A DNA stretch of 64,000 nucleotides, taken from NCBI GenBank assembly GCA_964349945.1, contig CAYGIH010000002.1, positions 125,492-189,491 on the forward strand, read 5' to 3'. Of this stretch, positions 3,183-49,493 are shown one piece after another. Within the stretch, counting starts at the first letter, position 1. Every line of letters starts with the position of its first letter. The DNA is from an uncultured Candidatus Saccharibacteria bacterium (GTDB taxonomy: Bacteria > Patescibacteriota > Minisyncoccia > Phycocordibacterales > Zambryskibacteraceae). The position numbers were made by a program, and so were the translations under genes. A model generated the notes under the pieces. The model worked only from the letters and a program-made list of their open reading frames with translations. It did no database searches and was not told where the DNA came from.

Positions 3183-3789
3183 TATGAAAAAAAACGGATT
3201 CACTCTAATAGAATTTTTGATGGCAGTTTCTATGGTGACAATTATTATTGTCGTGGTCACTATGTTCATAAAAGATGTTTTTTCATTCAATTCTTCTTCT
3301 CAAGCAAGCATGACTTCAACACTTGAGGGTAGAAAGGTTTTAAGGACAATGGTAGCTGAAATTAGAGCTATCACTCAAGGTGTAGACAATTCTTATGCCA
3401 TAAATACAGCATCTACCAGCACTCTTGTTTTTTATGTAGATACCAACGGAGATAGTCTTTCAGATAAGATAAGATATTACTTGGATGCTCCTTCTAAATC
3501 AATAAAGAGAGGAGTAATCCTTGCTTCTGGGTCTCCCTCTGGATATTCTGCTTCAGAAGATGTTTCAACCTTAATAAATAATGTCTCAAATGGAACCTCA
3601 ACAGCACTATTTGATTACTTTGATGAGGATTATGCAGGCACTACCAGTCCTATGACTATTCCTGTAGATCCGGCTTCAATTAGAATAATTAGGATTACTG
3701 TTAAGATTGATAAAGATATAAATCGTTCTCCTATGTCAGTCACGGTCACCTCTGAAGCTGTGCTTAGAAATTTAAAGGATAATTTATGA
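3169..3789 (+). CDS. Prepilin-type minor pilin
   Basis: N-terminal KNGFTLIEFLMAVSMV prepilin motif. Confidence 0.6.
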   Translation: MKVINMKKNGFTLIEFLMAVSMVTIIIVVVTMFIKDVFSFNSSSQASMTSTLEGRKVLRTMVAEIRAITQGVDNSYAINTASTSTLVFYVDTNGDSLSDKIRYYLDAPSKSIKRGVILASGSPSGYSASEDVSTLINNVSNGTSTALFDYFDEDYAGTTSPMTIPVDPASIRIIRITVKIDKDINRSPMSVTVTSEAVLRNLKDNL

Positions 3790-42001: not shown

Positions 42002-42511
42002 CTATGCTCTTTCTACGATAATTGTCATACCCTTAGGGCTTTTGACTGCAGGAGCAGCTGTTTTGTACTCCACAGTGAGGAGCTTCAGCATTCTTTCAAG
42101 GCGTTCTTGGAGGAATTTATTATCCAAATATTTGGCTCTCCCGGGGAGAAAAAGATCTATTTTGACTCGGTTGCCTTCAGCGAGCCACTCACTTGTCTTC
42201 CTGGCTTTGAGGGCGAGGTCATGGTCACCTGTGCCGAGCTTCACTTGAACGGTCTTAATTTCCACAGAGTGAGACTTCGATTTGGCTTGTTTAAGCTTTT
42301 TATTCTCTTCATATTGATACTTACCAAAATCAGCTATCTTGGCCACTGGGGGGACAGCGTTCGGAGATATCTCTATAAGGTCGAGGCCGAGGTCGGTGGC
42401 TTTCTTGAAAGCTTCTTCAAAGCTAATAACACCAAAATTTTCACCCTTAGGTCCGATGACACGGAGTTCACGTGCCCTTATTTGCATATTAAACCTGACG
42501 TTTGTACTCAA
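42002..42511 (-). CDS. infC: Translation initiation factor IF-3
   Basis: IRARELRVIGPKGENFGVIS core. Non-ATG (TTG) start at 42511, or alternatively ATG at 42487. Confidence 0.85.
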   Translation of the reverse strand: MSTNVRFNMQIRARELRVIGPKGENFGVISFEEAFKKATDLGLDLIEISPNAVPPVAKIADFGKYQYEENKKLKQAKSKSHSVEIKTVQVKLGTGDHDLALKARKTSEWLAEGNRVKIDLFLPGRAKYLDNKFLQERLERMLKLLTVEYKTAAPAVKSPKGMTIIVERA

Positions 42512-42582
42512 CTTTTTTGTTTTATTATTGCGGAGATTATAACAGTTTAAAGTGACCTCTACAAGGAGTATAATATTCGGAT

Positions 42583-42816
42583 ATGGAATACAGACACCGA
42601 GTGCCTACCTTAGACGAATTGAGGCAAAACAGAGTTGATTCAAGGCGAAAGACCAACAAACCAAAGTCTAAGTTATTTGGTAATGGGAACAAAGAATTAG
42701 AAGCGATAGAGAAATTGAAGGAAAGGATAGAAATAGAGAACGACATCATCCTTGCTCACCTTGAGAATCAAAACGAGCTTTTGCTTGAGATGATTAGAAA
42801 AATAGAGAGGAAATAA
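42583..42816 (+). CDS. Hypothetical coiled-coil protein
   Basis: 77 aa charged helical protein at native GC. Confidence 0.4.
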   Translation: MEYRHRVPTLDELRQNRVDSRRKTNKPKSKLFGNGNKELEAIEKLKERIEIENDIILAHLENQNELLLEMIRKIERK

Positions 42817-42825
42817 AAGCCGCGG

Positions 42826-43020
42826 TTAGGCGGTTTTGTTGGGTCGACATTCTGGGCAACGTCCATCCACGAGGTACTGTACTCGTACTGCGAGGTGACA
42901 GTTGATGCAGTAAGCAGCCATCTTCAAGAGAATCAAATCAGATTCTCTGGTGGATGCAGATTCTTGGAGATAAGGACTTTTCCTCGCTGGTATCACTGAA
43001 GTGGTCACCTGTTTCTCCAT
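42826..43020 (-). CDS. Possible small zinc-ribbon protein
   Basis: CINCH...CPEC pair. No convincing SD or promoter, so this is a weak call. Confidence 0.25.
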   Translation of the reverse strand: MEKQVTTSVIPARKSPYLQESASTRESDLILLKMAAYCINCHLAVRVQYLVDGRCPECRPNKTA

Positions 43021-43128
43021 TTGAAGTGTCTGAAATAAATTTACTCCATATAGGATAAAAAATCATTTCAAATTGTGTATAACAAAAAAGCCCCGACAGA
43101 AGCCAAGGGCTAATCTGCGGGGCTGAGC

Positions 43129-43359
43129 TTAGAAAAGCGAAGTCAGAGGCAAGGTCAAGAAATATCCGGCCCACTTGAAGAGTACCCCAGTTATCCAGAG
43201 AATTACTCCGATCAGTGGGATGCTAATCGCGACGGTGGCTACCCGACCGGCGGGGCCGAGCGGATATCCGTCTGCAGTGATTGAGTCTCTGTTTACATAT
43301 GCCGTCAACATGGCGACAATGTACAGACACCACGCCAGTATTACGAGAAGGGTGTGCAA
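43129..43359 (-). CDS. Small 2-TM membrane protein (paralog of 43816-44061), TTG start
   Basis: Promoter TTGACA-N17-like at about 43390-43420 (minus). GAGGT-tccc-TTG. Leader and protein align with the 44061 paralog (…AM…SIT…P[IL]G…). Terminator repeat R1 at 43084-43124. Confidence 0.5.
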   Translation of the reverse strand: MHTLLVILAWCLYIVAMLTAYVNRDSITADGYPLGPAGRVATVAISIPLIGVILWITGVLFKWAGYFLTLPLTSLF

Positions 43360-43448
43360 GGGAACCTCGTTTGTGTGAGAGGACGAAGAGTATCTAACTA
43401 GTATTAGATACCTACTTAGACCATTTGTCAAGTAATAAAAAACCCGCA

Positions 43449-43697
43449 TTACTTGCGGGGTTGCTTGCTGACTGTGGTGACCTCAATACGAATTCGCGGT
43501 TCTTCTTCTTGCATTGTCCAAAGAAACGCCATGGCGAGACCAACTTTGCTACCCTTAACTACTAGCCAATCACCCTTGCGTTTGTAGAGCGGGTTAGGGA
43601 TACGTTCCATAATCCATGTGCCCGCAGACAACATGACTCGTTTGCGGTTGCTTCCATCGATGAGTTGAACAGTGATAGGGAAGGTGACTTTGTACAA
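43449..43697 (-). CDS. Small hypothetical protein (82 aa), TTG start
   Basis: GAGGT-gtcac-TTG. Own terminator CAACCCCGCAAGTAATGCGGGTTTTTT (minus) at about 43436-43462. Confidence 0.45.
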   Translation of the reverse strand: MYKVTFPITVQLIDGSNRKRVMLSAGTWIMERIPNPLYKRKGDWLVVKGSKVGLAMAFLWTMQEEEPRIRIEVTTVSKQPRK

Positions 43698-43815
43698 GTG
43701 ACACCTCGTCGAGCGGGTTGAACAGTCTTTTATTACCTTACGCTTAATATAAAAAATGTAAAACAGAAAAGCCCCGACAGAAGCCGAAGCAAATCTGTGG
43801 GGGCATGGAGAAGAA

Positions 43816-44061
43816 CTACTCCTTATTGATGCGCGTTAGGCGTGGGTCGTTCGCTCGAATGTTGAGCACCCAATCGTAGCTCAAGATGAAGATCATGCAG
43901 CCGGCGACCATGATGAGCAAGCTGATGATGGTTGCTCCGATGGGATCGGCGACATTCCCGGTGATGCTGTGACCCAAGCAATCCGCACCGAGTACCGCCA
44001 TGCACATGGCCGGAAAACCGACGAGGAAAAGCAGGAGCAGTGACTTCACAAACACGGACAT
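43816..44061 (-). CDS. Small 2-TM membrane protein (paralog of 43129-43359)
   Basis: Perfect minus-strand promoter TTGACA (44127-44132)-N17-TATAAT (44104-44109). GAGGT-cacg-ATG at 44061. Terminator repeat R2 at 43767-43803. Confidence 0.6.
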   Translation of the reverse strand: MSVFVKSLLLLFLVGFPAMCMAVLGADCLGHSITGNVADPIGATIISLLIMVAGCMIFILSYDWVLNIRANDPRLTRINKE

Positions 44062-44179
44062 CGTGACCTCGGCGTGAGAGAACAGGAAGATACTCTACCT
44101 TATATTATATACCTATTTATCCTATTTGTCAAGTAGAAAATATGCCTAATATACTAGGTTTATTTGCTACAATAAATCA

Positions 44180-44479
44180 ATGACATCACCCGAACAAAAT
44201 TTTTTTAATGACAAGGATATACACGAAGTAGTTATAAACGGTTTACCTGAAGTAGAAGATTTAAAAAAGATTGATAAGGAGTTAGATAAACAAGACGCTC
44301 TTGAGCAAATGTTTGGTGGGAGTATTAAAGAAGATGATAGAGCAGGGAAACAAAGAGCAGAAAGTTCGTGGGACAGATTTTTTAAAAAAGGCTGGCAGAA
44401 AATTAAACCTTCAAAAGCAGAAATAATAGAAGATACAGAGATTACCAGAGCCCAGAGACAAAGCCCAAGGAATCAATAA
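44180..44479 (+). CDS. Hypothetical charged protein
   Basis: 99 aa at native GC. Ends at the bidirectional hairpin 44484-44507. Confidence 0.4.
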   Translation: MTSPEQNFFNDKDIHEVVINGLPEVEDLKKIDKELDKQDALEQMFGGSIKEDDRAGKQRAESSWDRFFKKGWQKIKPSKAEIIEDTEITRAQRQSPRNQ

Positions 44480-44511: not shown

Positions 44512-44905
44512 TGGTGGAGATGCCGGGAATCGAACCCGGGTGCAAAGAGAGATTCAAGTGAAGTCTACGCGAGGTAGGATGCTTCATTTAGTTCGAACAG
44601 AAAGATACAAAACAAACGAAAGCTCTTTCAATTCTATTCCCTTAATCTGAGAGTCAGTCGAGAAACACAAACTCCGAGTCTCTAGTTATTACGCACGCTT
44701 ATGAGTCAGAGGCACCCATCATAAGGCACGGTCGCACGCGAACTGTTAAGCTCGAGCGTAAGCGAACTGGAAATCATTCACACCGAAGTATGGTGATATC
44801 CTTGCAACAGTTTTGTTTGCAATTGTTTTTGAAGCGGATTAAAGAGTCACTTCGGCTCTCTCGCGCATCACTCGAATGAATCTCCTTGTCTAGGCCGATC
44901 ATCCC
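44512..44905 (-). ncRNA. ssrA: tmRNA (SsrA)
   Basis: 3' end ...CCGGGTTCGATTCCCGGCATCTCCACCA (T-arm plus acceptor plus CCA). 5' GGGGATG pairs with the 3' acceptor and gives a G3:U70 wobble. Internal tag ORF ends ...FAYARA-TAA. Adjacent to smpB. Confidence 0.8.
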
Positions 44906-45004
44906 CCTAAAACATTTTTGTATACAAAAATGTTCGGGCGATCGATTTGTAAACAAATCGATTTAGCCATAAAGCATCCTTGTATAAATGTTCGGGCGAA
45001 CAAA

Positions 45005-45274
45005 TTAATGGCTCGCCCTACTTTGTTTGTATTTATCTAGTATTTTCTTCTTTTCTCTCGCGCCCCACAAACTTTTTAGAAATCTTTCTCTATTGAACGC
45101 TTCAGTCTTATCTTCAAATTTTTCACTATGGATAAGACTGAGCGGTCTGCGAGATTTAGTTGCTTGCACGGCTCCATTGTTGTGTCGCACTAATCTTTTC
45201 TCAAGATTAGTGGTGCAACCAACATAAAGTTTGTGGTCTTTAGAACTTAGAAGGATATAAACAAAGTAGGGCAT
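45005..45274 (-). CDS. GIY-YIG nuclease superfamily protein (YhbQ-like)
   Basis: FVYILLSSKDHKLYVGCTTNLEKRLVRHN GIY-YIG motif. 89 aa. Confidence 0.75.
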   Translation of the reverse strand: MPYFVYILLSSKDHKLYVGCTTNLEKRLVRHNNGAVQATKSRRPLSLIHSEKFEDKTEAFNRERFLKSLWGAREKKKILDKYKQSRASH

Positions 45275-45284
45275 ACCATACTTA

Positions 45285-45722
45285 TTATTTCAATTTACGA
45301 TTCAGGTCTCTCTCGACATCGCGTTTCTTGATGGATTCGCGTTTGTCGAATTTTTTCTTGCCTCGCGCAATGGCGAGGTCAAGCTTTAGAAACCTACCTT
45401 TATTATACACCGAAAGAGGCACGATTGTCAAGCCTTTAGTCCCTTCAGCTTTTTCTAATTCACCAAGCTCTGCCTTGGTTAGAAGTATTTTCCTTGCCCT
45501 AGTTGATTCATAGTCCGCAGGGGCGTTTTTTGGCTGATAGGCTGGGATGTCAGCATTGAGGAGGAAGGCTTCTTTACCTCGGATGGTCACATAAGCCCCA
45601 GAGAGGGAAATGTGCCCAGCCCGAACAGACTTCACTTCTTGGCCAGTTAGCTCGAGCCCAGCCGTGAACTTCTCAAGGATTTCATAATCAAATGTCACTT
45701 TTCTGTTCTGTGCGAGTGCCAT
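45285..45722 (-). CDS. smpB: SsrA-binding protein SmpB
   Basis: Conserved SmpB core (GLELTGQEVKS, SGAYV). Confidence 0.9.
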   Translation of the reverse strand: MALAQNRKVTFDYEILEKFTAGLELTGQEVKSVRAGHISLSGAYVTIRGKEAFLLNADIPAYQPKNAPADYESTRARKILLTKAELGELEKAEGTKGLTIVPLSVYNKGRFLKLDLAIARGKKKFDKRESIKKRDVERDLNRKLK

Positions 45723-47717: not shown

Positions 47718-48009
47718 TATAATTATCTGGTGTTAAGGAAAACTATAATCATCGGTGTTGCGGTTTATGCGGTCTCTATGTTTCTTGGATTTTTTGTCTA
47801 TAGAAATGTTTATTTGGCCCAGTCCTTGGAAGGGACACAAGATTATCTGGCTTCAGTGTTTTTGGCCTTGAGAAATTTATTTTTTTAAATAACAAAAAAC
47901 CATTTTTCTTTGCACGATAGTTTTCTACTGAAAACTTCTCTGCTCAAGCCAAGCTTTCAGCAAGGCACGAAAAATGGTTTTTTTGTATTACTTCTTTATG
48001 TCGTCCATA

Positions 48010-49066: not shown

Positions 49067-49419
49067 ACATCCTCCGTGGAAATAAGTCAGGGAACTGGTG
49101 AATCAGTGAGATTCCAGCGAGTCTAATGTGAATATTAGCACATAATATGTAAAAAGTCAAGATAAATCCACTTGTCGTCACATGCTTTTAACGTGTCGTC
49201 ACAAGTATTTTTCTGCTGAAAAATCTCGCGACCCCGACTCAGCCCGTCGGCTTCTGTCTCGGACAAGTAAAAAACCGTGTCCCACAAGCTTTTTTACTTG
49301 TCCGCCCTCTTGGAATCTTCACACCTAGGAAACCCACGGTTTTCCCAATCCTTCCTTCACGGGAGACCAGATGTTCTCCCGACCCCTCTCCGTTCGAATC
49401 CAAGAGGATTCACTTCGTG

Positions 49420-49493
49420 TCCGCCCTCTTGGATTCGAACCAAGGACCCCAGAGGTATAAGCTCTGTGCTCTAACCAACTGAGCTAAGGGCGG
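49420..49493 (-). tRNA. tRNA-Ile (anticodon UAU)
   Basis: Cloverleaf: acceptor CCGCCCT/AGGGCGG, D GCTC/GAGC, anticodon stem CAGAG/CTCTG with loop CTTATAC, T arm CTTGG-TTCGAAT-CCAAG. No encoded CCA. Confidence 0.7.

Follow-up and report, generated by a model that had tools for sequence, protein, structure and literature searches.

A small islet of ORFan genes downstream of ssrA in a Parcubacteria genome: two predicted membrane-protein genes within homologous promoter-leader and terminator sequences

Gene content of the ssrA-infC interval

The stretch of DNA analysed here (64 kb, hereafter called the window) contains six small open reading frames (ORFs) between the gene for transfer-messenger RNA (tmRNA), ssrA (44512-44906, minus strand), and infC (42002-42511, minus strand). 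The subject of this study are two of them, A (43816..44061, 81 amino acids (aa)) and B (43129..43359, 76 aa, TTG start), both on the minus strand, which are enclosed by homologous promoter, leader and terminator sequences, whereas their coding sequences are unrelated to each other. An initial annotation of the window had described four small minus-strand ORFs in this interval. All four were confirmed and follow each other in the order A, C, B, D from ssrA towards infC, bracketed by the plus-strand ORFs E and F. Two hydrophobic segments are present in each of the proteins A and B, as had been described, and A additionally exhibits an acidic loop and a basic C-tail. The segment 42826-44135 comprising the four minus-strand ORFs is referred to below as the islet. 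Its neighbours are infC, a gene of the DUF1003 family, ssrA and smpB.

Promoters, leaders and terminators of A and B

A repeat search of the window revealed a 67-nucleotide (nt) repeat with 75% identity in front of B and A (43373-43439 and 44074-44140, respectively). According to the alignment, the similarity sets in about 10 nt before the -35 box and reaches the start codon, so that promoter and 5' untranslated region (5'UTR) of both genes are homologous over about 80 nt in total with about 75% identity. The upstream regions of A and B score 73-77 against each other, compared to 15.9 +/- 3.3 for 80-nt windows taken elsewhere in the sequence. The homology of the 5' leaders stated in the initial annotation is thereby confirmed, and it goes further than stated there: it includes both promoters, the entire 5'UTR and the Shine-Dalgarno sequence GAGG.

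The shared elements comprise the -35 box TTGACA, a conserved 17-nt spacer, the -10 box, a CU-rich leader and the GAGG motif 5 nt before the start codon, which is ATG in A and TTG in B. Promoter A (44104..44132, TTGACA-N17-TATAAT) agrees with the consensus at 12 of 12 positions, the perfect match noted previously, and its spacer AAATAGGATAAATAGGT is kept in cassette B as well as in a metagenomic locus (L085) discussed below. Promoter B (43403..43431) reads TTGACA-N17-TCTAAT. Its -10 box lacks the A at position 2, and it is probably weaker than promoter A. The 5'UTR of A (44062..44097, Shine-Dalgarno sequence at 44070-44067) and that of B (43360..43396), homologous to it through the Shine-Dalgarno sequence at 43368-43365, are both unstructured. 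Their folding energies of -3.5 and -3.9 kcal/mol, respectively, are no better than those of shuffled sequences (z = +1.65 and +0.17).

A second repeat of 29 nt with 93% identity, including an exact shared 19-mer, follows the two genes (43076-43104 and 43757-43785). It belongs to the intrinsic terminators of A (43760..43804) and B (43081..43123), for which stable hairpins of -18.8 kcal/mol (z = -4.1) and -23.7 kcal/mol (z = -5.1) were calculated, each followed by a U-tract. The claim of repeated, near-identical terminators thus holds. Promoter motif and terminator motif each occur at only two sites in the 64-kb window, with none expected by chance. That each membrane-protein gene has a promoter of its own is supported by these results, and A and B are predicted from the sequence to form independent transcription units, each with its own promoter and terminator.

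On the plus strand, a promoter-like site TTGTCA-N18-TATACT (44126-44155) faces ORF E and overlaps the -35 box of promoter A base for base. The promoters of A and E may therefore be arranged back-to-back and divergently with one shared -35 region. ORF E (44180..44479, plus strand, 99 aa) occupies the gap between the islet and ssrA, is divergent from cassette A and is AT-rich, with a guanine-plus-cytosine (GC) content at third codon positions (GC3) of 0.26.

The coding sequences of A and B

In the flanks the two cassettes are 75-93% identical; this similarity drops to random level precisely at the start codon and reappears 5-11 nt past the stop codon. BLASTP comparison of the proteins A and B yielded a 10-residue match alone (E = 0.22), Smith-Waterman alignment against composition shuffles gave z = 0.25, none of the nine reading-frame combinations produced anything significant, and at nucleotide level the coding sequences reached z = -1 against codon shuffles. 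The paralogy of A and B proposed in the initial annotation is hence not borne out; the SIT...P[IL]G resemblance of the loops on which it drew is a very short match. Of the homology expected from a nucleotide alignment of both cassettes, the part concerning promoter/leader and terminator stands, but the coding sequences are unrelated.

The GC contents at codon positions 1, 2 and 3 are 0.50, 0.38 and 0.76 in A and 0.51, 0.44 and 0.61 in B. Host genes have GC3 values between 0.30 and 0.47, and the mean GC content of the window is 0.40. Because of this codon-position pattern, A and B are probably real genes that are compositionally foreign. The complete units of A and B show a GC content of 0.52-0.57 in a genome of about 0.40, a deviation which had gone unnoticed in the initial annotation.

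Both genes are ORFans. Among 5.8 billion proteins A and B matched only themselves, and an exhaustive HMMER search with A returned itself and a spurious repeat protein (P0021) only. No widespread housekeeping family of proteins with two transmembrane (TM) segments, which the initial annotation had named as a refuting outcome, emerged from these searches. Pfam, PHROGs, NCBIfam and PADLOC gave no match above threshold for any of the ORFs A-F. The scores of protein A against the TrbC/VirB2 pilin model (PF04956, 13.5 bits, cut-off 27.9) and the IncF model (PF17626, 15.9 bits, cut-off 27) lie below the Pfam gathering thresholds and reflect similarity of hydrophobic segments only. The acidic loop and the basic C-tail of A suggest a topology with both termini inside (N-in/C-in), and A and B are probably inserted into the membrane in this orientation. 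Our best guess is an accessory role in the envelope, e.g. exclusion of phages or competitors or modulation of host contact, because morons and small islets usually carry genes of this kind.

Occurrence of the regulatory sequences around other genes

A scan of metagenomes with the 19-mer of the terminator retrieved 17 loci, 16 of which represent chance matches or generic terminators. The match in L095 lies in an unrelated array of outer-membrane-protein paralogues. Only L085 contains both elements of the regulatory shell, i.e. promoter-leader and terminator: its promoter ACTTGACAAATTAGATAAATAGGTGTATACT and promoter A share 85% identity over 41 nt, its extended terminator and terminator A 93% over 46 nt. 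The enclosed gene, in contrast to A and B, encodes a multi-TM protein of 217 aa (856-1509, GC3 0.60) and is located after lepA in a genome with a GC content of 0.41. Beyond the shell, nothing in L085 or in its longer version L106 matches the islet. The occurrence of the same shell around a different gene elsewhere was likewise missing from the initial annotation.

The 217-aa protein belongs to a family in Parcubacteria with 18 conserved members (P0003-P0020, 205-219 aa, 53-100% identity) and an invariant LKSLPQF motif. No match was found in Pfam, NCBIfam or PADLOC. There is a weak match (E = 0.11) to a 100-aa PDB chain, 4x5m, annotated as 'uncharacterized protein', which we take to be the SemiSWEET of E. 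coli. In every case the gene of this family has its own promoter and hairpin terminator. It is found downstream of ssrA in L100, L101 and L113, beside infC in L102/L103, and in other genomes it follows lepA, adjoins rpmF or precedes mraZ. A and B are unrelated to the family in any frame, and the possibility that one of them is an other-frame remnant of a 217-aa gene was rejected, as the hidden Markov model of the family finds nothing in the six-frame translations.

The ssrA-infC spacer in related genomes

IF3 places the host in the Parcubacteria/Paceibacterota of the candidate phyla radiation (CPR), the best relatives being 84-85% identical. Two other assemblies (ENA ERZ27247817 and Logan ERR3094292) contain the islet region with 100% identity, and it therefore is not an assembly artefact. 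A second assembly of the locus, L001, shows no mismatch across the islet, ssrA and infC (100% identity). In its smpB region (L001 52-130, corresponding to 45360-45416 of the window) it shows eight clustered mismatches in 57 nt, and its first 51 nt are unaligned; either a strain recombination breakpoint or a contig-end artefact may account for this.

In 80 related infC loci neither A, B, C and D (tblastn, E <= 1) nor the DNA of the islet was detected, while F and SmpB were found there. In 23 of these 80 loci, no more than 6 kb separate the tmRNA gene from infC. Where the gene order is that of the window, the measured spacers between ssrA and infC range from 230 nt to about 5.5 kb and their content differs from relative to relative: L004 contains a 140-aa ORF at this position, L003 a phospholipase-D-like gene together with a 208-aa ORF. 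With infC as the conserved right-hand anchor of the synteny comparison, the variable DNA of the window starts after the ssrA terminator at 44479, and its foreign, GC-rich part starts at 44135. Since size and content of the spacer vary among relatives, the islet lies in a variable spot 3' of ssrA, which is a classical integration target (PMC4383910, PMC3146451). This spot, too, had escaped the initial annotation.

Comparable cassettes in other Parcubacteria

Local alignment of the gene flanks separated two clusters, one consisting of the 217-family gene of L085, A and B, the other of the 217-family genes of L101 and L102 and a gene of L101 for a lipoprotein-like protein of 88 aa. In L101, two adjacent cassettes with unrelated cargo (a 205-aa multi-TM protein and the 88-aa lipoprotein-like protein) have homologous promoter and leader sequences and terminators with 100% identity over 54 nt. 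The cassette of the 217-family gene is located between the 3' end of the tmRNA gene and an exact copy of 18-19 nt of this end (GATTCCGCCCATCTCCAC). The 88-aa cassette starts 3 nt past the exact ssrA 3'-end copy, and the first cassette is preceded by a more degenerate ssrA-like repeat. This arrangement has the signature of repeated site-specific integration and rearrangement at ssrA around 1-kb cassettes without integrase. In the same locus (L101 1-1120, JGI Ga0373622_0010265) the tmRNA 3' end is followed downstream by a second exact copy of GATTCCGCCCATCTCCAC that ends in CCA, and an inverted tRNA-like 3'-end fragment is present at about 80-105.

Similarly, the terminator of the 217-aa gene of L100 recurs in L113 behind unrelated genes of 118 and 86 aa. 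A further locus, L104 (1-4850, Logan SRR29305604), carries an array of at least seven unrelated genes, among them a member of the 217-aa family, a NUDIX protein and several ORFans. A repeat of about 72 nt (ATCTCAAGTCGAACTTCATTCCACATGTGGAGC, containing the palindrome CCACATGTGG) is situated before each of these genes, followed by a promoter of its own.

The cassette genes exhibit GC3 values of 0.5-0.7 everywhere. These are native-like in the GC-rich loci L113 and L102 but foreign in the AT-rich L101 and in the window. Because the composition of the cassettes fits GC-rich hosts and not AT-rich ones, a transfer from GC-richer Parcubacteria is suggested.

Interpretation and comparison with known systems

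On balance we favour, with moderate confidence, the view that 42826-44135 is a lineage-specific, horizontally acquired islet of moron-like, self-contained cassettes with swapped cargo. A and B would each consist of a near-consensus sigma-70 promoter, an unstructured leader of about 36 nt with an exposed GAGG, the ORF and a strong intrinsic terminator, and would be transcribed and translated from these elements. As the shells are homologous while the coding sequences are unrelated, the shell would have been duplicated and the cargo inside replaced rather than diverged. The cassettes probably passed from GC-richer to AT-richer Parcubacteria and would have been deposited next to ssrA. The likeliest route for re-assorting the cargo would be recombination in the conserved 40-80 nt shell sequences among cassettes of related genomes.

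Several observations weigh against this view. The known copies of the shell of A and B number at least three (A, B and L085); L085 represents another species or another site of the same genome, and the samples containing the window locus and L085 do not overlap. The islet contains no integrase or other mobility gene, the six ORFs between infC and ssrA gave no match to a Pfam, NCBIfam or PHROG family, and no displaced copy of the ssrA 3' end beyond chance was detected in 42512-44478, so that integration of the islet at ssrA would be deduced by analogy to other loci. C and D have no recognisable promoter and neither of them shares the shell. No function can be assigned to any of the cargo proteins from Pfam, PHROGs, NCBIfam or PADLOC. 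Finally, with its weakened -10 box and the TTG start, B may be in decay.

Phage morons are transcription units in their own right that have been added to the genomes of prophages (Cumby et al. 2012, PMC3594210). The cassettes resemble them as self-contained units of promoter, gene and terminator whose composition differs from that of the surroundings (GC 0.52-0.55 and GC3 0.61-0.76 versus about 0.40 and 0.30-0.47, respectively, in the host), which lie between conserved genes and encode small accessory, often membrane, proteins. The gene unit of the 217-aa family also occurs in differing genomic contexts (lepA, rpmF, mraZ, ssrA). Unlike morons, the cassettes lie outside any recognisable prophage, and no relatives of them were found in phage or viral collections: phage and plasmid records gave no DNA match, and viral contigs contained neither the shell motifs nor relatives of C, D or the 217-aa family. 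Moreover, the re-use of a shell around unrelated cargo is not part of the moron concept.

Islands at the tmRNA gene are known from the tandem ssrA islands of Dehalococcoides (PMC3146451) and from the Islander/TIGER islands (PMC4383910). The islet shares with them strain-specific variable DNA immediately downstream of ssrA, and in L101 copies of the ssrA 3' end flank the cassettes, an arrangement known from tandem or accreted islands. In contrast, the islet spans only about 1.3 kb and harbours no tyrosine or serine integrase, no integration module and no displaced ssrA fragment, and the single-gene cassettes measure 0.4-1 kb as opposed to multi-kb islands. According to one of these papers, deletion and amelioration can erase island repeats, and such an erasure would fit the situation in the window.

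Integron cassettes are also single-ORF units of unrelated function with related repeats at the 3' ends of the ORFs, and the L104 array is the closest parallel to them. However, the 3' element found here is a plain G+C hairpin with a U-tract and has no R''/L''-L'/R' core sites; each cassette possesses its own promoter, and no IntI, attI or attC is visible (in L104 neither attC nor integrase). Going further, one might postulate an undescribed gene-cassette system of Parcubacteria in which promoter-ORF-terminator units of 0.4-1 kb are sent to the 3' side of the tmRNA gene, the shells serving both as expression parts and as homology arms, with exchange of the cargo at two precise points, the start codon and the position just ahead of the hairpin. 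A and B, the two cassettes of L101, the shared terminators of L100/L113 and the L104 array would then be instances of a functional analogue of integrons without attC or IntI but with expression built in. At present we rate a system of such generality as rather unlikely.

Alternatively, A and B could be true paralogues which arose by tandem duplication, perhaps of A+C and B+D units, and whose coding sequences diverged under diversifying selection while the flanks were conserved. Both proteins are of similar length, have two hydrophobic segments and contain SIT...P[IL]G in a short loop at a comparable position, the leader homology continues through the Shine-Dalgarno sequence to the start codon, and the distances between the repeat copies (701 nt for the 5' repeat, 681 nt for the 3' repeat) are compatible with a tandem duplication. 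We nevertheless regard this explanation as unlikely. The coding sequences are unrelated at protein and nucleotide level and in all frames, although the flanks are 75-93% identical; C and D are, judged by eye, unrelated to each other; and replacement of the cargo is certain in the parallel cases (217-aa versus 81-aa protein with the shell of A, 205-aa multi-TM versus 88-aa lipoprotein-like protein in L101).

The initial annotation had likened A and B to type I toxins and holins. If they were toxic membrane peptides of this kind, or involved in abortive infection, they would have to be curbed by an unseen antisense RNA or by C or D. Multi-copy type I toxin loci include the hok/sok, ldr/rdl and ibs/sib families. 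As there, several short hydrophobic ORFs occur in the islet with conserved 5' and 3' untranslated regions, and a small soluble gene follows each membrane gene. Protein A also matches the CARF_TM model weakly and below threshold (E = 0.009), and its charged C-terminal tail (NIRANDPRLTRINKE) fits class II holins, while B ends in a hydrophobic tail. We consider a toxin function quite improbable. In type I loci the mRNAs are structured and repressed, whereas here promoter A is perfect and the leaders are unstructured with a free Shine-Dalgarno sequence; near-consensus promoter and unstructured leaders argue for straightforward, constitutive expression and against a control of the type I toxin style. 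In addition, the coding sequences are mutually unrelated, and with 76-81 aa and two TM helices the proteins exceed the typical size of type I toxins. No convincing antisense unit of promoter and terminator was detected, the sole antisense signal being a weak promoter-like site (9 of 12 positions) inside B on the plus strand (43292-43320) without terminator. Concerning holins, the neighbourhood contains no lysin-like ORF or family match and no endolysin or phage gene, and no matches were obtained in PHROGs, phage records or viral contigs.

It is very improbable that the units of A and B represent structured or regulatory small RNAs with accidental ORFs. The GC-rich islands with their own promoter and terminator and the lack of homologues of the ORFs would be in line with it, but the strong three-base GC periodicity in the proposed frames, the GAGG conserved 5 nt before each start codon and the membrane-protein hydropathy of the translated products contradict it. 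Rfam revealed nothing in the window besides the tmRNA and two tRNAs, and the whole-transcript folds of A and B are not unusual (z = -0.35 and -1.9, respectively); a structured non-coding RNA was rejected on these grounds. Equally remote is a bacteriocin/immunity locus, also considered initially, in which A and/or B would confer immunity or be leaderless bacteriocins themselves. Small membrane proteins that are present in more than one copy, have strong promoters of their own and are encoded in a variable region would suit it, but no precursor with a double-glycine or other leader peptide and no ORFs or families for processing or export were found between 41000 and 46000, nor any Pfam or NCBIfam match.

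For the time being, the islet is a small group of ORFans with an unusual, thinly sampled modular architecture. Gene acquisition and the expression of newly acquired genes are little known in CPR bacteria, whose genomes are tiny and whose lifestyles are obscure. Since relatives wrap the same shell around a different membrane protein, the cassettes of the islet suggest that these genomes trade ready-to-express genes. If the pattern of shell and cargo is general, it would offer a simple route for trading membrane proteins in a ready-to-express form, these being the likeliest class of proteins to make contact with hosts and phages, and would single out the ssrA-infC spacer as a site in which to search for accessory genes. 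The shells with near-consensus promoter, open leader and strong terminator would also be candidate natural expression parts for CPR genetics.

ORFs C, D and F and further observations

ORF C (43449..43697, minus strand) encodes a soluble protein of 82 aa and has a TTG start with a GAGG Shine-Dalgarno sequence. Its terminator (43437..43462, hairpin of -10.1 kcal/mol with U-tract) directly abuts promoter B. No homologue was found for C, for which the search was not exhaustive, or for E, and the predicted structure of C (predicted local distance difference test score, pLDDT, 46.5) is too poor for a fold search. The upstream regions of C and D were considered as decayed copies of the shell promoter, but the similarity was not significant.

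ORF D (42826..43020, minus strand) encodes a 64-aa Zn-ribbon protein with a CxxC...CPEC motif. It is homologous to a 73-aa Zn-ribbon ORF in the islet downstream of ssrA in L113 (BLASTP E = 2e-7; Smith-Waterman z = 9.9, with none of 5000 shuffles reaching the score), and the two are reciprocal best matches among all loci compared. A Zn-ribbon-like 65-aa ORF of L101 was examined as a further relative and shows no similarity to D. Searching phages with C and D by tblastn gave nothing significant.

The right edge of the variable region is formed by ORF F (42583..42816, plus strand, 77 aa), an internally deleted copy of a DUF1003 gene. Its similarity to the 151-aa DUF1003 protein, which is encoded divergently from infC in relatives, is confined to the N- and C-terminal parts, and the central part of about 74 residues holding both TM helices is missing. 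Neither A nor B is the missing segment, as they show no similarity to it.

Between ssrA and smpB, which are adjacent in L004, the window contains a stand-alone 89-aa GIY-YIG ORF (45005-45274, minus strand). When the 80 related loci were searched, similar ORFs were found in only two of them, L074 (68% identity) and L056, a distribution that suggests a selfish insert.

The 3' end of the tRNA-Ile(UAU) gene, TCCGCCCTCTTGGATTC, is duplicated about 125 nt downstream as TCCGCCCTCTTGGAATC (49296-49313 and 49419-49493), resembling what an integration at this tRNA would leave behind. The sequence between both copies includes the 11-mer CGGCTTCTGTC, which is also present in the cassette terminators.

Just past ftsH, an 81-nt element (47904-47984, plus strand) is enclosed by a long stem of AAAAAACCATTTTTC and GAAAAATGGTTTTTT. 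It has no Rfam match and may represent either a small RNA or a conserved repeat resembling a terminator. L106 contains an 88% identical copy after a tRNA gene (3529-3609), and a related 19-mer is found in the window at 49206-49224.

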